In this document: positions 9,301-39,540 of the stretch, in pieces | Position numbering within the stretch: the first letter of the stretch is position 1 | Layout of the letters: every line of letters begins with the position of its first letter | IMG/VR virus record: IMGVR_UViG_2563366853_000004 | Span: 1 to 41,977 of that record | Origin: a virus | Taxonomy: Duplodnaviria; Heunggongvirae; Uroviricota; Caudoviricetes | Direction: 5' to 3' (one strand) | Length of the DNA: 41,977 nucleotides | Notes under the pieces: generated by a model | Told to the model about the DNA's origin: nothing | The model's database searches: none | Seen by the model: the letters and a program-made list of their open reading frames with translations, nothing else | Program-made: the position numbers and the translations under genes

Positions 9301-9410
9301 AATAAGACCTCAACTCTTTTCCATCCGTCACGTAATTTACTGGTGATTCGTTCAAGTAAAGATTCGGAAGGGCAGCCAGCAACAGGCCACCCTGCAATGG
9401 CATATTGCAT
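9285..9410 (-). CDS. cIII: CIII-like FtsH inhibitor with shortened, divergent C-terminus
   Basis: MQYAIAGWPVAGCPSESLLERITSKLRDGWKR matches the lambda CIII N-terminus and core; GGAG upstream of the ATG at 9410; ends after 41 aa versus 54 in lambda. Confidence 0.75.
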   Translation of the reverse strand: MQYAIAGWPVAGCPSESLLERITSKLRDGWKRVEVLLCAMK

Positions 9411-9631
9411 GGTGTGCTCCTTATTTATACATAACGAAAAACGCCTCGAGTGAAGCGTTATTGGTATGCATATAAAAAGGCCCTCACACTGGAGGGCAAA
9501 GAAGATTTCCAATAATCAGAACAAGTCGGCTCCTGTTTAGTTACGAGCGACATTGCTCCGTGTATTCACTCGTTGGGATGAATACACAGTGCAGTGTTTA
9601 TTCTGTTGTTAGTGCCAAAAATAAAGGCCGA

Positions 9632-12033: not shown

Positions 12034-12327
12034 ATGGTTCGTGCAAACAAACGCAACGAGGCTCTACGAATCGAGAGTGCGTTGCTTAACAAAATCGCAA
12101 TGCTTGGAACTGAGAAGACAGCGGAAGCTGTGGGAGTTGATAAGTCGCAGATCAGCAGGTGGAAGAGGGACTGGATTCCAAAGTTCTCAATGCTGCTTGC
12201 TGTTCTTGAATGGGGCGTCGTTGACGACGACATGGCTCGATTGGCACGACAAGTTGCTTCGATTCTCACCAATAAAAAACGCCCGGCGGCAACCGAGCGT
12301 TCTGATCAAATCCAGATGGAGTTCTGA
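12034..12327 (+). CDS. cII: Transcriptional activator CII
   Basis: [75 protein letters not shown]… is lambda CII. Confidence 0.95.
12042..12055 (-). promoter_or_regulatory. pRE CII-binding site (TTGCGTTTGTTTGC) within the cII 5' end
   Basis: Minus-strand TTGC-N6-TTGC repeat at the same position as lambda pRE. Confidence 0.75.
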
Positions 12328-12359: not shown

Positions 12360-12506
12360 ATGACAAAACAACTCAGTCCTTACCAGGACAAAATTCACAA
12401 ACACATACTACGTGATCGCTTCCTGTCCAGCTTCAAGCAGCCTGGTCGATTCCGGGCTGAGTTGGAAAAAGTGAAGCTGATGCAGAAGGAGAAAGGTCAT
12501 GAGTAA
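12360..12506 (+). CDS. Small hypothetical ORF between cII and the replication initiator
   Basis: Hand-translated 48-aa ORF with CAGGAG upstream; overlaps the O-like gene start; uncertain. Confidence 0.3.
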
Positions 12507-13359
12507 TCTTGCAACCGTAACACATTTAAGGCCTTCACAACGGCCTGTGGAGCGTTGTGTGGCAGAAGTTGAAGATGGTTATACCCGTCTTGCAAATGCC
12601 CTGTATGAAGAGCTTATCGGCGCTGATTTAACGAAAAATCAGAGCAAGGTTGCCCACGCCATATGCCGTAAAACATACGGCTACGGTAAAAAGATGGATC
12701 GCATCTCTGATAGTCAGTTAGCTCAAATTACCAGGCTGCCAAGACAGAAGGTAAACAAGGCCAAGAATGAGCTTATCGCGATGAAGGTTATCCTTCGCGA
12801 AGGCCAGCAAATCGGGCCTAACAAGAACATCGAGGAATGGCAAATCGAAGGATGTCACTACACTGGTGATAATGTCACTGCATTGGTGACAAAAAGTGTC
12901 ACCAAAACGGTGACAGCGCTGTCACCAAAACAGGGACACACAAAAGAAACTATTACAAAAGAAAAAAGAAATAATAAAAACACTATGTCCGAAAGTGTTC
13001 GGACGGAGTGTGAAAAATCACCTGACCGTCACGAAGAAACCGACAAGGCATTCGAGGAAATATTCTGGTGTGCAGGCATGCGAAAAGCCGGGAAGAAAAA
13101 CGCAGCTTCAGCATTCAGAACACAGTTCAGGGAATGGCGTAAAACTACAAGGGGTACGGCAAGCGAGTTTGCCACGATGCTGGCAGAAGACATCGCATGC
13201 AGGAATGGTAAGCAGTTCGGATTCGACAGGTTGTTACCATCGAGCTACCTGAACGGTCAGCGCTGGAACGACGAAAAGCCAGAAACCATTCAACCACAAT
13301 CCAAACCATCATCCGCAATCACCGTATCGAAAACTGGCTACGTGTTTTTCGACAGGTGA
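12499..13359 (+). CDS. O-like replication initiator (iteron-binding)
   Basis: 286-aa ORF at the lambda O position with the replication origin embedded in mid-gene, as in lambda O; sequence is not lambda O. Confidence 0.7.
12853..12990. repeat. Replication origin: four ~19-bp iterons plus an AT-rich tract
   Basis: TGTCACTACACTGGTGATA, ATGTCACTGCATTGGTGACA, AGTGTCACCAAAACGGTGACA, GCTGTCACCAAAACAGGGACA in tandem, then an A-rich stretch (AAACTATTACAAAAGAAAAAAGAAATAATAAAAACACT). Confidence 0.75.
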
Positions 13360-13466
13360 ACCATGAAATCAAAAATCAAATCGCTACTGGTCGCTGGTTA
13401 TAACCACGGCTGGTTAAGTATTTCGTTTGTCGATTTCTGGTTTAAAAATCTCAATCTGAGGGAATC

Positions 13467-15347
13467 ATGACGCCAAGTGAACTTAGCGACCTGCTTTGGG
13501 CGCAGGTTGACAGGGTGGCTCCGCACCTGTTGCCAAACGGCAAGAAAGAGGGGCATGAGTGGGTTGCCGGTAACGTCAACGGTGACAAGGGAAACAGCCT
13601 TAAGGTCAACCTTAGCGGCAAGAAAAAATGGGCTGATTTCGCTGAGGGAGACGGCGGTGACATGCTTGATTTGTGGATGTCATGTCGTGGAATTAACCTG
13701 CATCAGGCTATGCAGGAAGCGAAAGCATTTCTCGGTATCAAGGATGACGATCACCATTTCGATGCCAAACGTGAGAAGAAATTCTCCAGACCTGATCGCA
13801 AGAAAATCGCCCGCTACGTTACCAGAACAGAATCCCATCTTGAGTACCTGCAATCGCGTGGCATATCGCCAGAAGTCGTAAAGCGCTACGAGGTTGTCAG
13901 CGGCAAGGTGTGGAATGGAGAGCGGGAACTGGATGCTCTGGTGATTCCGTACAAACGCGATGGTGAGTTGTTGCAGGTCAAGCGAATCAGCACTGAGCGC
14001 CCGGACGGGAAGAAAGTCATTATGGCAGAAGGTGATTGCGAACCTTGTCTGTTCGGATGGCAGGCTCTGGACGCTGGCGTGAGGGCGGTTGTACTTTGCG
14101 AAGGCGAAATTGATTGTATGAGCTATGCGCAATACGGCATCTCGGCGTTATCCGTGCCGTTTGGTGGCGGGAAAGGCGCTAAGCAGCAGTGGATTGAGTT
14201 TGAGTATCACAATCTCGACAGGTTTGAGGAAATATTCATCTCGATGGACGTTGATGATGTTGGTCGTGAAGCCGCAAGGGAAATCGCAAGCCGACTCGGT
14301 GAACATCGTTGCCGTCTTGTTACTCTGCCGTACAAAGACATCAACGAATGCCTGATGAACGGTGTTACCGAGGATGAAATCTGGCAGTACATCGGCACGG
14401 CATCCTACTTCGATCCTGAAGAACTCTACAGCGCGCGAGAGTTTTACCAGGACACTATCAACGCTTTCTACGGCAAGCAGCAGTATCTGTTTAATCCACC
14501 GTGGGAATCTCTGGCAGATAAATTCCAGTTCCGTGAGGCCGAGTTGACGCTGGTCAATGGTGTGAACGGTCACGGAAAAACGGAGGTTGTCGGGCATATG
14601 GCACTTGAGGCAATGCGTCAGGGTGTGAAGACGTGCATCGCGTCACTTGAGCTGAAGCCAGGCATTCTCCTTAAGAGACTTACCCGTCAGGCGACGTGCT
14701 GCAAGATGCCGCCAGTGCTGGAAATTGACTCTGCATTTAAATTTTATGACGAAAGACTTTGGGTGTTTGGCCTGACCGGAACGGCGAAAGCCGACAGGCT
14801 GATCGAAATATTCGACTACGCTCGCCGCCGATACGGCATCCAGTTATTCATCATCGACAGCCTGATGAAATGTGGCATAGGCGACGATGACTATAACGGG
14901 CAGAAAGCGTTTGTTGACTCGATTTGCGATTTCAAAAACAAAACAAACTCCCACGTCATTCTCGTTACTCACTCGCGAAAAGGTGACAGCGAAGAAAAAC
15001 CAACCGGGAAAATGGACGTAAAAGGCTCTGGAGCGATAACAGACCTGACAGACAACCTTTTCATCATCTGGCGTAACAAGGCTCGCGAGAGAGCGTTACA
15101 GAGAGTTCAGAGTGGTGAAAAGATGTCAGAGAAGGACGAACAGCTACTGGCATCTCCGGCATCTGTTTTGATGCTTGAAAAACAACGTAACGGCGAAGGT
15201 TGGGAAGGTGGTGTCCCGTTGTTCCTTGACGAGCAATCGCACCAGTTCCTGCAACTTGAATCAGGATCGCCATATAGCTACATCGCCAATATGCCGAAAT
15301 CGGAATATGACGAGGCGTGGCGACAGGAAAACGTGACGGAGTATTAA
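13467..15347 (+). CDS. Bifunctional DNA primase (Toprim) and DnaB-like replicative helicase
   Basis: 626-aa ORF with GAGGG SD; N-terminal acidic motifs (VVLCEGEIDCMSY…ISMDVDDVG) suggest Toprim; C-terminal Walker A-like GVNGHGKTE and Walker B-like LFIIDSLM suggest a DnaB/RecA-fold helicase. Replaces lambda P. Confidence 0.75.
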   Translation: MTPSELSDLLWAQVDRVAPHLLPNGKKEGHEWVAGNVNGDKGNSLKVNLSGKKKWADFAEGDGGDMLDLWMSCRGINLHQAMQEAKAFLGIKDDDHHFDAKREKKFSRPDRKKIARYVTRTESHLEYLQSRGISPEVVKRYEVVSGKVWNGERELDALVIPYKRDGELLQVKRISTERPDGKKVIMAEGDCEPCLFGWQALDAGVRAVVLCEGEIDCMSYAQYGISALSVPFGGGKGAKQQWIEFEYHNLDRFEEIFISMDVDDVGREAAREIASRLGEHRCRLVTLPYKDINECLMNGVTEDEIWQYIGTASYFDPEELYSAREFYQDTINAFYGKQQYLFNPPWESLADKFQFREAELTLVNGVNGHGKTEVVGHMALEAMRQGVKTCIASLELKPGILLKRLTRQATCCKMPPVLEIDSAFKFYDERLWVFGLTGTAKADRLIEIFDYARRRYGIQLFIIDSLMKCGIGDDDYNGQKAFVDSICDFKNKTNSHVILVTHSRKGDSEEKPTGKMDVKGSGAITDLTDNLFIIWRNKARERALQRVQSGEKMSEKDEQLLASPASVLMLEKQRNGEGWEGGVPLFLDEQSHQFLQLESGSPYSYIANMPKSEYDEAWRQENVTEY

Positions 15348-15428
15348 ATGACCATCTACATCACTGAGCTGATAGCAGGCCTGCTGGTAATCGCAGGCCT
15401 TTTTATTTGGGGGAGAGGGAAGTCATGA
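15348..15428 (+). CDS. Tiny hydrophobic ORF (26 aa)
   Basis: [26 protein letters not shown]; start abuts the upstream stop (TAAATG) and its stop overlaps the ninB start; uncertain. Confidence 0.25.
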   Translation: MTIYITELIAGLLVIAGLFIWGRGKS

Positions 15429-36594: not shown

Positions 36595-39540
36595 ATGACA
36601 GACATTACAGCCAATGTTGTAGTGAGTATGCCTTCGCAACTCTTCACTATGGCGCGTTCTTTTAAAGCCGTAGCCAATGGCAAAATTTATATCGGTAAAA
36701 TTGACACTGACCCGGTAAATCCTGAAAACCAGATTCAGGTTTATGTAGAGAACGAAGACGGTTCTCACATTCCTGTTTCGCAACCAATAATCATTAACGC
36801 TGCTGGATATCCGGTATATAACGGACAGATTGCCAAATTCGTAACCGTGCAAGGCCATTCTATGGCTGTTTATGATGCGTATGGTACACAGCAGTTCTAT
36901 TTTCCGAATGTGCTGAAGTATGATCCTGATCAGTTACGACAGCAATTAGAAGACCCAGATGGAGCGAATAAATACCCAAAACTTCAGATAGCAAGATGGA
37001 GAGACAGTTATGATGTAAGAGGTTGGGGGGCTATTGGTGATGGTGTTCATGATGATACATCAGCTCTATCAGAATTACTTTCTGTTGCAACAGGTGGTGA
37101 AAAGATAGATGGGCGAGGGCTTACTTTTAAAGTATCAACTCTTCCAGATGTCAGTCGATTTAAAAATGCTCGTTTTTTATTTGAGAGAATACCGGGTCAG
37201 CCTCTTTTTTATGCTTCTGAAGATTTTATCCAAGGAGAGTTATTTAAAATTACAGATACACCGTGGTACAACGCCTGGACGCAGGATAAAACGTTTGTAT
37301 ATGACAATGTCATCTATGCGCCTTTTATGGCTGGAGACCGCCATGGTGTAAATAACCTCCATGTTGCATGGGTTCGCTCAGGAGATGACGGGAAGACCTG
37401 GACAACGCCGGAATGGCTTACAGATTTACATGAAAACTATCCCACAGTTAACTATCACTGCATGAGTATGGGGGTTGTCAGAAATCGCCTTTTTGCTGTA
37501 ATTGAGACGCGGACCGTGAGCGGAAATAAACTGCAGGTTGCAGAGTTGTGGGATCGCCCAATGAGTCGCAGCCTTCGCGTTTATGGTGGTATAACGAAAG
37601 CAGCAAATCAGCAAGTCGCTTATATTCGCATTACTGATCACGGATTATTTGCTGGTGATTTTGTCAACTTCTCAAACTCTGGTGTTACAGGTGTTACCGG
37701 GAATATGACGGTGACTACTGTCATTGATAAAAATACTTTTACAGTTACGACGCAAAATACCCAGGATGTGGATCAGAATAACGAGGGTAGATACTGGAGT
37801 TTTGGTACATCATTTCACTCGTCACCATGGAGAAAAACCAGTCTTGGAACTATTCCTTCTTTTGTTGACGGAAGCACTCCTGTTACTGAGATTCACAGTT
37901 TTGCGACGATTAGCGATAACAGTTTTGCTGTTGGCTACCATAATGGTGATATTGGTCCACGCGAGCTTGGGATACTCTATTTCTCTGATGCTTTCGGTTC
38001 TCCTGGTAGCTTTGTTCGCAGACGCATACCTGTAGAATATGAGGCGAATGCATCTGAGCCATGTGTAAAATATTATGATGGCATTCTGTATCTGACGACC
38101 AGGGGGACATTAAGTACTCAACCCGGTAGTTCATTGCACAGAAGCTCTGATTTAGGTACATCATGGAATTCTCTTCGCTTCCCAAATAATGTTCATCACT
38201 CAAACCTTCCTTTTGCCAAAGTTGGCGATGAGCTGATTATTTTTGGCAGTGAGCGCGCATTTGGTGAGTGGGAAGGAGGAGAACCTGATAACCGTTATGC
38301 AGGAAATTATCCAAGAACATTTATGACCAGAGTTAACGTCAATGAGTGGAGTCTGGATAATGTAGAGTGGGTTAATGTTACTGATCAGATTTATCAGGGC
38401 GGAATAGTTAACTCTGCGGTTGGTGTTGGTTCAGTTTGTATCAAAGACAACTGGCTGTACTACATTTTCGGTGGGGAAGACTTTCTAAACCCATGGAGCA
38501 TAGGGGATAACAACAGAAAATATCCTTATGTTCACGATGGTCACCCGGCTGATTTGTATTGTTTCAGGGTGAAAATTAAACAGGAAGAATTTGTTTCAAG
38601 GGATTTTGTCTACGGAGCCACTCCTAACAGAACGCTTCCTACTTTTATGTCGACGTCAGGCGTGAGGACGGTTCCTGTACCCGTTGATTTCACAGATGAT
38701 GTTGCCGTCCAGTCACTGACTGTCCATGCAGGTACATCAGGACAAGTTCGCGCGGAAGTCAAACTTGAGGGTAATTACGCCATTATTGCGAAGAAAGTAC
38801 CGTCTGATGATGTTACCGCTCAGAGATTAATCGTTAGCGGAGGTGAAACAACGTCTTCAGCAGATGGTGCAATGATAACGTTGCATGGTTCCGGAAGCAG
38901 TACTCCACGTCGCGCGGTATATAACGCACTCGAACATCTTTTTGAGAACGGAGATGTTAAACCTTATCTTGATAATGTAAATGCTCTTGGTGGTCCGGGA
39001 AACAGGTTCTCGACAGTTTATCTTGGCTCCAATCCTGTGGTTACCAGTGACGGAACATTAAAGACAGAGCCGGTCTCTCCTGACGAAGCATTGCTGGATG
39101 CCTGGGGTGACGTCAGGTATATCGCTTATAAATGGCTGAACGCTGTCGCTATAAAGGGGGAAGAAGGGGCGAGGATACATCATGGTGTAATCGCGCAGCA
39201 ACTTCGTGATGTTCTTATTTCTCACGGACTCATGGAAGAAGAAAGCACAACATGCCGCTATGCCTTTCTTTGCTATGACGATTATCCCGCAGTATATGAT
39301 GACGTCATTACTGGCCAAAGGGAAATGCCGCTGACTGATAATGACGGGAGCATCATTGTTGATGAGGATGATAATCCAGTGATGGTAATGGAAGACATCA
39401 TTGAGCGCGTTGAAATAACGCCAGCAGGATCTAGATGGGGGGTCAGACCTGATCTCTTATTCTATATCGAGGCGGCATGGCAGCGCAGAGAAATAGAAAG
39501 AATAAAAGCTAGGTTAGACTTAATAGAAGGGAAGCACTAA
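36595..39540 (+). CDS. Tailspike: P22-type N-terminal head-binding domain, endosialidase-like catalytic region, C-terminal intramolecular chaperone domain
   Basis: N-terminus [58 protein letters not shown] matches the conserved P22 tailspike N-domain; the central region is unlike P22 gp9 and its endosialidase assignment is from memory of CUS-3/K1F; the last ~160 aa resemble the self-cleaving chaperone domain with a candidate cleavage motif VVTSDGTLK. Confidence 0.8.

Follow-up and report, generated by a model that had tools for sequence, protein, structure and literature searches.

The phage DNA analyzed here (a stretch of 41,977 nucleotides, referred to in full as the window) contains the early-right replication module of a P22-like lambdoid Escherichia coli phage in its ES18-type form. 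Taken as a whole, the module is very probably best explained as an O-type initiator acting at a homologue of ori-lambda together with the phage's own primase-helicase of the T7 gp4 type, with no P-type loader. From sequence, we infer only that replication from such a module would be independent of host DnaB and host DnaG. The DnaG half is the less certain of the two, because the N-terminal domain of the primase has lost all four zinc ligands. The arrangement itself is already known and therefore not a discovery: it has been annotated in ES18 and relatives since 2005 and is described in the literature. The 2005 ES18 record lists gp61 as "putative primase/helicase; similar to phage T7 gene 4" and annotates a "rep_origin similar to lambda ori", and a 2023 paper explicitly states the primase-helicase substitution.

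Borders and gene order of the module

Lambda-identical DNA is present on both sides of the module, stopping at position 12367 and restarting at 15348, and the flanking cII and ninB genes are 96 to 98% identical to those of lambda. The "swap" thus has sharp borders, in agreement with the original prediction that a replication module had been exchanged. The same prediction placed a fused primase-helicase where lambda has P, and this also holds: the 626-aa gene occupies the place of P, and no P-like sequence was found in the window. A tblastn search of the whole window with lambda P and a P-like Vibrio phage protein gave nothing better than E 0.08, Pfam and PHROG gave no P-like match in 12360-15400, and nothing in the whole window resembles lambda P, Ren, or the lambda O C-terminal domain. 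The prediction erred in one respect, in that it set the 626-aa gene immediately after O, whereas a conserved 35-aa ORF (the equivalent of ES18 gp60) lies between them. This ORF directly follows O, and its stop codon overlaps the ATG of the 626-aa gene (ATGA). Its length and position are kept in ES18, phi24B, mEp043, Fraca, and CharmingMan; its product differs from the ES18 copy at 2 residues and has about 26% amino acid identity to the CharmingMan copy.

Upstream of O, the stop codon of a 48-aa DUF2740 ORF overlaps the O start. RefSeq labels its product "DUF2740 family protein", and its counterpart in ES18 is gp58. The left end of the lambda homology falls just within this ORF. An Rfam search of the module returned no match, and a promoter scan of the region showed no enrichment (4 seen versus 4.0 expected). 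The features of the module and its flanks are listed in Table 1.

Table 1. Features of the replication module and its immediate flanks (positions in the window)
Feature	Position	Strand	Evidence or remarks
Terminator-like hairpin	12276..12303	-	Lambda-identical left flank, antisense to cII 3' end; presumably the position of the oop terminator
DUF2740 ORF, 48 aa	12360..12506	+	Between cII and O; Pfam DUF2740, E 9e-29
O-like replication initiator, 286 aa	12499..13359	+	Pfam Phage_rep_O (PF04492), aa 21-114, E 2.3e-37
Four 19-bp iterons, each an inverted repeat TGTCAC-N7-GTGACA	12853..12938	.	Start-to-start spacing 20/24/23
AT-rich, A-strand-biased tract	12939..12990	.	Presumed DNA-unwinding element
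O C-terminal domain, aa 160-286	12976..13359	+	Presumed primase-helicase adaptor; left end of conserved cassette
Conserved 35-aa ORF	13363..13470	+	PHROG 21848, E 4e-26
T7 gp4/Twinkle-type primase-helicase, 626 aa	13467..15347	+	Pfam, PHROG, PDB, Foldseek
N-terminal domain, aa 1-92	13467..13742	+	Zinc-less counterpart of primase CHC2 zinc ribbon
RNA-polymerase/Toprim domain, aa ~110-310	13794..14396	+	Best-modelled part, pLDDT 82-95
SF4 (DnaB/gp4-like) helicase domain, aa ~355-594	14529..15248	+	
Terminator-like hairpin	15377..15400	+	Lambda-identical right flank, just before ninB; taken to be the position of lambda tR2

The 626-aa protein is a homologue of T7 gp4

Profile and structure searches recovered both the Toprim and the DnaB-like domain that had been read from the sequence of the 626-aa protein. 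Pfam matched Toprim_2 at aa 209-296 (E 3e-12) and AAA_25 above the cut-off (E 2e-6), with DnaB_C just below it (E 3e-5), and PHROG 239, "DNA primase/helicase", matched at E 4e-171. In the PDB, phmmer found 5ikn_D (E 2.6e-23 over aa ~191-539) and 6n7i (E 3e-23). T7 gp4 (E 7e-21) and Twinkle (E 4e-20) were the top Foldseek matches of an AF2 model, which is of modest confidence (mean pLDDT 64.8). These matches identify the protein as homologous to T7 gp4 over both the primase and the helicase.

The catalytic residues of both halves are kept. In the RNA-polymerase/Toprim domain, K172, K182, E212, D216, D261, D263, and D291 align with T7 K122, K128, E157, D161, D207, D209, and D237, and the catalytic positions of this domain are invariant in a six-sequence alignment that spans relatives down to 41% identity as well as T7 (24%). 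In the SF4 domain, G368-x-G370-K371, E395, D464, and H502 align with T7 G315, G317, K318, E343, D424, and H465 and are invariant in the family; K371 corresponds to the Walker A lysine of T7 and D464 to its Walker B aspartate. R574 is one residue off T7 R522 in the alignment, so that it is a probable rather than an exact match to the arginine finger. As in T7 gp4, the C-terminal tail is acidic and terminates in an aromatic residue (...SEYDEAWRQENVTEY).

The N-terminal domain departs from this pattern, since only one Cys (C73) is present in aa 1-190. Zn_ribbon_DnaG gave a weak, subthreshold but colinear Pfam match (E 0.079, aa 26-92), and Zn_Ribbon_Prim, which matched T7 at E 3.5e-12, gave no match in the 626-aa protein. 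In an hhalign comparison (E 0.11), the CHC2 ligands correspond to G35, N38, D57, and E60. The zinc-ligand positions show no conserved Cys or His among 104 diverse relatives, yet a motif of the form G-x-EW...S-L-K-V...W-x-DFA...GD-L-L-D-LW is strongly conserved in this domain, with S44, D57, G64, and D65 nearly invariant across the 104 clusters. Met66, which we considered as an internal start for a gp4B-like short form, lies in this motif where most relatives have Leu. A primase N-terminal domain that is zinc-less yet highly conserved poses a small biochemical question of its own.

T7 gp4 depends on its zinc domain for template-directed priming, and human Twinkle, which is zinc-less, is without primase activity; with the zinc ligands absent, primer synthesis by the 626-aa protein is consequently not assured. 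One alternative is that the phage has replaced DnaB and P with a helicase whose primase half makes no primers, leaving host DnaG still required. The absence of all four CHC2 zinc ligands, here and across the clade, would fit this arrangement, as would the analogy to metazoan Twinkle, retrieved in the PDB and Foldseek searches, with its inactive zinc-less primase-like domain. There is also a precedent in P22 gp12, which works with DnaG (Wickner 1984, as cited in PMC8022706). However, every Toprim/RNA-polymerase-domain catalytic residue is conserved, and the strong conservation of the zinc-less domain itself points to retained function rather than decay. Moreover, DnaG normally docks on the N-terminal domain of DnaB, which the 626-aa protein lacks. 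Weighing these observations, we regard continued dependence on DnaG as unlikely and favor a protein that supplies both helicase and primers.

The origin is a homologue of ori-lambda with different iterons

As the original prediction described, iterons and an AT-rich tract lie within the O-like gene. There are four 19-bp iterons (12853-12938), and the origin is in the DNA that encodes the disordered linker of the protein. The iteron copies are TGTCACTACACTGGTGATA (12853), TGTCACTGCATTGGTGACA (12873), TGTCACCAAAACGGTGACA (12897), and TGTCACCAAAACAGGGACA (12920). When at most one mismatch is allowed, these four are the only matches to TGTCAC-N7-GTGACA in the 42-kb window; at two mismatches there are 6 matches versus 1.7 expected in the window, four of them within 86 bp. 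Both the clustering and the count relative to expectation rule out chance occurrence. Of 80 related IMG/VR loci, 79 have all four iterons. Folded as single-stranded DNA, the iterons form strong structures (z = -5.5). Among the defenses reported to sense lambda O, P, or ori are OLD and Lamassu, which reportedly respond to ori hairpins.

The resemblance to lambda extends to the layout of the origin. The lambda iterons, at 39034, 39054, 39078, and 39101, agree with those of the window in position and in the 20/24/23 spacing, with arms of TCCCTC instead of TGTCAC, so the prediction of an ori-lambda arrangement with another iteron sequence is correct. GC is 27% at 12930-12989 versus about 45 to 50% in the surrounding DNA, and ACACAAAAGAAACTATTACAAAAGAAAAAAG within the tract is nearly identical to the AT-rich region of lambda ori. 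Judged by these shared features, the origin is a true homologue of ori-lambda. DnaA boxes were considered as a further origin element and rejected, since TTWTNCACA occurs 2 times in the window versus 4.7 expected, with one occurrence near the origin (13009-13017).

The O-like protein encoded across this origin consists of an N-terminal winged-helix domain (aa ~20-115), the disordered linker (aa ~115-175), and a helical C-terminal domain (aa ~179-260). Its N-terminal domain is 49% identical to residues 1-155 of lambda O (BLASTP). The AF2 model is of low overall confidence (mean pLDDT 57.2; N-terminal domain 65-90, linker 25-34, C-terminal domain 60-83), and Foldseek with this model gave only generic winged-helix matches (E > 0.07). 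A phmmer search of the protein against the PDB gave no match. The overall likeness to lambda therefore comprises an origin inside the initiator gene, four dyad-symmetric iterons of equal spacing, a near-identical AT-rich tract, and a homologous O N-terminal domain, whereas the differences are the iteron arms, an unrelated O C-terminal domain, and a primase-helicase in place of P and ren.

Three iteron/N-domain alleles share one cassette

Comparison with related phages indicates that at least three alleles of the iterons and O N-terminal domain share one conserved cassette, composed of the O C-terminal domain, the 35-aa ORF, and the primase-helicase gene. This cassette is found in ES18, epsilon34, and Stx2 phages and has 88 to 98% DNA identity across the three alleles. 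The first allele, in ES18 and epsilon34, has lambda-type iterons and an N-terminal domain 94% identical to that of lambda O; the second, with TGTCAC iterons, is that of the window, mEp043, and Sf101; and the third, in phi24B, has GGGGTGGGGCAGGAGCTGCCC repeats and an HTH_36 N-terminal domain. The breakpoints between alleles lie exactly at the boundary of the O N- and C-terminal domains. DNA homology of the window to the Stx2 phage phi24B begins at 12975, and that to ES18 begins at 12926. A clean three-way exchange of iterons and N-terminal domain on one cassette would serve well as a textbook example of sub-gene mosaicism.

ES18 (gp58-gp61) shares with the window the order of a DUF2740-like ORF, an O-like gene with internal origin, the 35-aa ORF, and the 626-aa primase-helicase, with 88% DNA identity from 12926 to 15351, and an ES18-type region is also found in epsilon34, g341c, vB_SosS_Oslo, and the Anderson typing phages STMP5/17. 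In contrast, the ES18 iterons are lambda-type (ATCCCTCAAAATGAGGGA; ATCCCTC...GAGGGA), and the 94% identity of its O N-terminal domain to that of lambda compares with only 49% for the window. The phages mEp043, Sf101, vB_EcoP-720R6, and SEN22 carry the same allele as the window without any difference of substance, their whole modules, TGTCAC iterons included, being 98% identical (91% for SEN22).

The O C-terminal domain as a candidate adaptor

We considered whether the C-terminal domain of O is related to that of lambda O, which binds P. BLASTP found no similarity to lambda O past aa 157, and an hhalign comparison of the domain's family profile with the lambda O C-terminus gave E 0.57; neither method showed homology between the two. 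Pfam has no family for the domain. Among phages with differing N-terminal domains, it is 92 to 100% identical in amino acids. The O gene is followed by a primase-helicase gene in all 79 IMG/VR loci with enough room and in all 48 Fraca-type loci, in which the C-terminal domain is about 55% identical.

More distant members of the domain family (about 40 to 50% identical), in Vibrio phage PVA1, the D65 group, and two further loci (L140 and L148), are followed by a small P-like loader instead, so strict one-to-one pairing of the domain with a primase-helicase does not hold. The P-like identity of the 213-aa PVA1 protein is weakly supported by PHROG 109, "P-like helicase loader" (E 3e-4), and was not confirmed by Pfam. 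The adaptor role of the domain, presumed from linkage, is accordingly tentative.

It is possible in principle that the domain is no adaptor, having instead a generic function in O-some oligomerization or DNA melting, and that its linkage reflects proximity alone; the helicase would then either self-load where the AT-rich DNA has melted or be loaded by the 35-aa protein. The P-like neighbors of the distant relatives speak for this possibility, T7 gp4 loads itself without a loader, and the conserved 35-aa ORF shows translational coupling to the helicase gene. Nevertheless, three unrelated N-domain/iteron types keep the same C-terminal domain and helicase, with exchange exactly at the N/C boundary; the equivalent position of lambda O binds P; and in Pseudomonas phage AF an O-like gene abuts the primase-helicase gene without a small ORF between. 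We consider a purely generic role improbable and retain the adaptor as the working model.

Occurrence and integrity of the module

The module was found in 286 of 5,426 complete E. coli genomes (about 5%) and is 98% identical in DNA in the plaque-forming phages mEp043 and Sf101. It is a frequent, ordinary allele of the lambdoid replication module, and one that is also carried by medically relevant Stx2 phages. That it might be a decayed prophage remnant, with relic ORFs and no autonomous replication, is highly implausible: apart from the general commonness of prophage decay, nothing specific speaks for it, while all ORFs are intact and match their counterparts in mEp043 and Sf101, both of them viable phages, at 98 to 99.7% identity, the iterons are intact, and the window carries a full P22-like gene set. 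In the records of mEp043, Sf101, vB_EcoP-720R6, and SEN22, the helicase gene bears the label "hypothetical", "DNA primase", or "toprim domain-containing".

Proposed replication pathway and host dependence

In the model that we favor, O would be made from pR transcription after prophage induction or infection. As in lambda, dimers of its N-terminal domain would bind the four TGTCAC-N7-GTGACA iterons and destabilize the adjacent AT-rich tract. Next, the O C-terminal domain, which has traveled with the helicase gene in evolution, would deliver the SF4 helicase of the phage, a hexamer, to the opened DNA. Because O would bring the phage's own helicase, host DnaB, its delivery by P, and the DnaK/DnaJ/GrpE remodeling that P requires would all be dispensable. 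Priming probably falls to the Toprim domain of the 626-aa protein, and host Pol III holoenzyme would extend the primers. The O N-terminal domain and its matching iterons would together determine iteron specificity, and recombination within or close to the AT-rich tract could exchange this pair while leaving the cassette undisturbed.

A more far-reaching version of this model is one that we offer tentatively and with considerable doubt. The zinc-less N-terminal domain may be a new template-recognition module that, together with the O C-terminal domain and the 35-aa protein as adaptor or loader, forms a self-contained primosome feeding Pol III. Such a primosome would bypass DnaA, DnaB, DnaC, DnaG, and the DnaK system and would thereby escape mutations and defenses directed at the lambda O-P-DnaB pathway.

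A literature search found no experiment on the host DnaB or DnaG needs of ES18-type modules. Which host replication proteins such phages require bears on the replication of Stx phages, and hence on toxin dose, as well as on the host defenses or groP-type mutations that they evade.

Relation to other replication systems

Several known systems combine some of the same parts. Like T7 gp4 and Twinkle, the 626-aa protein has a Toprim primase and an SF4 helicase fused in one chain with the catalytic residues kept. It differs from T7 gp4 in sequence (identity about 24 to 25%) and in having no Cys4 zinc ribbon, in which it is like metazoan Twinkle; it is also tied to an iteron origin and an initiator, and its partner is presumably the polymerase of the host instead of T7 DNA polymerase. 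We noticed no polymerase gene among those of the phage.

The P22 gene 18/gene 12 system likewise has an O-like initiator with internal iterons, a phage helicase of the DnaB family, and no P, and gp18 and gp12 make replication DnaB-independent. Unlike the 626-aa protein, gp12 is DnaB-like without a primase domain and uses host DnaG.

A functional model for the predicted host independence is the IncQ plasmid RSF1010, which encodes an iteron-binding initiator (RepC), its own SF4 helicase (RepA), and its own primase (RepB') and replicates with host Pol III without DnaA, DnaB, DnaC, or DnaG. In RSF1010, however, these functions are divided among three proteins, the primase RepB' is not of the Toprim type, and primers are made at dedicated ssi sites.

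Setting and borders of the replication module

The window holds the genome of a lambdoid E. coli phage of the P22-like (HK620/Sf6-like) type, with the integrase and early-left genes on its left side and P22-type virion genes on its right. The replication module sits within the early-right operon, in the order cII, DUF2740 ORF, O-like gene, 35-aa ORF, 626-aa gene, and ninB. Lambda-like DNA borders the module on both sides: the left flank (nutR, cII, to the start of O) is 98% identical to lambda and stops at 12367, and the right flank (tR2 region, ninB) is 96% identical and starts at 15348. P, ren, and the lambda O C-domain are absent between these two points and throughout the rest of the window. 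Each flank carries a terminator-like hairpin, one at what we take to be the position of the lambda oop RNA terminator and the other presumably at that of tR2; thus, lambda regulatory signals appear to frame the swapped module. PHROG 1913 and some RefSeq phage records label the DUF2740 ORF "tail protein", which is almost certainly a propagated misannotation because the ORF is placed in the early-right operon. At gathering threshold, Rfam gives a single match in the window, the lambda cIII thermoregulator element (9365-9423, minus strand, 88.5 bits).

Features of the replication module and its borders
Feature	Coordinates	Strand	Remark
Terminator-like hairpin	12276-12303	-	lambda-identical left flank
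48-aa DUF2740 ORF	12360-12506	+	between cII and O
O-like gene, 286 aa	12499-13359	+	Pfam Phage_rep_O
35-aa ORF	13363-13470	+	between O-like gene and primase-helicase
626-aa primase-helicase gene	13467-15347	+	Pfam Toprim_2, AAA_25; PHROG 239
Terminator-like hairpin	15377-15400	+	lambda-identical right flank

The O-like initiator and its origin

The O-like protein matches Phage_rep_O with an E value of 2e-37, and its N-domain shares 49% identity with residues 1-155 of lambda O. Its C-domain showed no similarity to that of lambda O by BLASTP, and profile comparison of the two gave E = 0.57. An AF2 model of low overall confidence contains a winged-helix N-domain, a disordered segment (aa 115-175), and a small helical C-domain; the disordered segment is exactly the portion encoded by the iterons and AT-rich tract.

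The original prediction placed four ~19-bp iterons and an AT-rich tract inside this gene, in the ori-lambda arrangement with a different iteron sequence, and we confirmed all of these elements. The four 19-bp repeats start at 12853, 12873, 12897, and 12920, each forming the inverted repeat TGTCAC-N7-GTGACA, and the ~50 bp that follow are 27% GC. No other site in the 42 kb matches this repeat with one mismatch or fewer, and chance is excluded as the source of four sites in 86 bp. The start-to-start distances of 20, 24, and 23 bp equal those of lambda (iterons at 39034, 39054, 39078, and 39101), and direct alignment revealed near-identity between the window and lambda in the AT-rich tract ACACAAAAGAaACTATTACAAAAGAAAAAAG, whereas the iteron arms differ (TCCCTC in lambda, TGTCAC in the window). 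Judged by sequence, the window origin is a homologue of ori-lambda and not just an analogue.

As single-stranded DNA, the iteron block (12845-12995) is predicted to form stable hairpins (-22.1 kcal/mol, z = -5.5 versus shuffles), and the OLD and Lamassu defenses are reported to sense such ori hairpins in lambda (2026 preprint). Some O homologues of the lambda type from Salmonella and metagenomes (P0156, P0172) contain additional copies of the iteron-encoded peptide, e.g., TSLKTGDKTSLKTGDKTSL, implying five or six iterons rather than four.

A T7 gp4-like primase-helicase in place of P

The 626-aa protein was predicted to replace P as a Toprim plus DnaB-like protein, and its domain content bears this out: in addition to Toprim_2 and AAA_25, DnaB_C scores just under its cut-off, and PHROG 239, "DNA primase/helicase", matches with E = 4e-171. 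One correction applies: the gene next to O is the 35-aa ORF (product MKSKIKSLLVAGYNHGWLSISFVDFWFKNLNLRES), whose stop overlaps the primase-helicase ATG, and the 626-aa gene comes after it. Among PDB sequences searched with phmmer, T7 gp4 is matched over residues 191-539, covering the Toprim and helicase domains (E = 3e-23), and Twinkle is next (E = 7e-14). Foldseek also placed T7 gp4 and Twinkle on top when queried with the AF2 model (mean pLDDT 64.8; 82-95 in the primase RNA-polymerase domain).

When the protein is aligned with T7 gp4 and with relatives as little as 41% identical, primase residues K172, K182, E212, D216, D261, D263, and D291 (T7 K122, K128, E157, D161, D207, D209, and D237) and helicase residues G368, G370, K371, E395, D464, and H502 (T7 G315, G317, K318, E343, D424, and H465) are invariant, and R574 lies one position off the T7 arginine finger R522. 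The catalytic centre of the primase is intact, and it is under selection. The C-terminus (15303-15347; ...SEYDEAWRQENVTEY) forms an acidic tail closed by an aromatic residue, ...ENVTEY, which resembles both SSB-type tails and the T7 gp4 tail (...DTDF), through which gp4 binds T7 DNA polymerase. This tail is possibly a handle for a host replisome subunit. The tail is conserved among enterobacterial relatives.

A zinc-less primase N-domain and predicted host independence

Only one Cys occurs within residues 1-190. The T7 N-terminus matches the Pfam primase zinc-ribbon model with E = 3.5e-12; the 626-aa protein matches the CHC2 ribbon of DnaG only below threshold, though colinearly (E = 0.079). 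With hhalign, and with a DnaG sequence not drawn from a database record, we obtained a weak alignment to the zinc domain of E. coli DnaG in which G35, N38, D57, and E60 occupy the four zinc-ligand positions. Using residues 1-200 as the query, we searched 1.8 billion representative proteins with HMMER and obtained 691 clusters at E <= 1e-10, of which the best 150 are mostly ~600-aa proteins. The zinc-ligand positions hold no conserved Cys or His across 104 full-length representatives, while S44, W55, D57, F58, G64, D65, and L69 are near-invariant; a conserved, zinc-less N-domain is thus common to the whole clade.

Template-directed priming by T7 gp4 requires the zinc domain, and metazoan Twinkle, which is zinc-less, is not known to act as a primase. 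Weighing the zinc-less N-domain against the intact catalytic centre, we consider helicase autonomy of the module likely and primase autonomy probable but unproven. By analogy with P22 gp12, T7 gp4, and RSF1010, the predicted independence from host DnaB and DnaG is reasonable, with the DnaG half less secure. We found no experimental work on the module's host requirements in the literature.

Exchange of origin-recognition units and distribution of the module

The description and structural interpretation in the original prediction are correct, and the module is a common form of the lambdoid replication module that had already been annotated. It is 98% identical throughout in mEp043, Sf101, and vB_EcoP-720R6 and 91% in SEN22. 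From ~12926-12975 rightwards, spanning the O C-domain, 35-aa ORF, and primase-helicase (here, the cassette), DNA is 88-98% identical in ES18, epsilon34, vB_SosS_Oslo, and Stx2 phages including phi24B and Min27. In the ES18 record, gp59 is given as lambda gpO-like, the rep_origin is marked "similar to lambda ori", gp60 has 35 aa, and the entry for gp61 reads "putative primase/helicase; similar to phage T7 gene 4"; the epsilon34 origin-binding protein is ES18-type with a lambda-like N-domain (94%) (epsilon34 paper). The primase-helicase falls in a 90%-identity cluster of 5632 member sequences. The module is present in 286 of 5426 complete E. coli genomes, under the RefSeq names "replication protein" and "toprim domain-containing protein", and at least 79 IMG/VR contigs carry it with all four iterons intact.

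Three distinct origin-recognition units are joined to this one cassette: ES18 has lambda-type iterons and a lambda-type N-domain, the window combines TGTCAC iterons and a diverged Phage_rep_O N-domain, and phi24B has GGGGTGGGGCAGGAGCTGCCC repeats and an HTH_36 N-domain. The joints lie in or just past the AT-rich tract. Across the three units, the O C-domain is 92-100% identical in amino acid sequence, and the 35-aa ORF and primase-helicase always come next. The more distant lineage of Fraca and CharmingMan (O C-domain ~55%, helicase ~61% identical) has these three genes in the same order in 48 of 48 loci, and its 35-aa ORF retains length, position, and the motif LVAGYN-G where neighboring genes are just ~55-60% identical. 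In Pseudomonas phage AF, an O-like gene is paired with a 41%-identical primase-helicase, and the 35-aa ORF is absent.

In lambda, the O C-domain serves as the adaptor for P, and the linkage seen here is as would be expected if this C-domain were a helicase adaptor. That reading is weakened by more distant relatives (40-50% identical; motif FW-AGM-K...GFDK-HPTTYLN--RW-DE) in Vibrio phages PVA1 (L004) and D65 (L005) and IMG/VR loci L140 and L148, where a small P-like protein (motif WPPS..QF; weak match to PHROG "P-like helicase loader") replaces the primase-helicase. Evidently, the C-domain family can partner with either kind of protein and is not tied to one helicase system.

Relatives also carry insertions. 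The phi24B "P" (L002:2996-5899), a 968-aa copy of the same primase-helicase, is interrupted within its Walker A motif (GHGK|T; window 14577/14578) by 1024 bp encoding Hint and LAGLIDADG homing-endonuclease domains, which identify the insertion as an intein in the P-loop. The window's primase-helicase is intein-free, and this insertion is also present in 2 of 80 IMG/VR relatives. In 5 of 76 IMG/VR loci with a full-length primase-helicase (from L011-L090), O and primase-helicase are 602 bp apart rather than the usual 111 bp, indicating an additional ~490-bp insertion between them.
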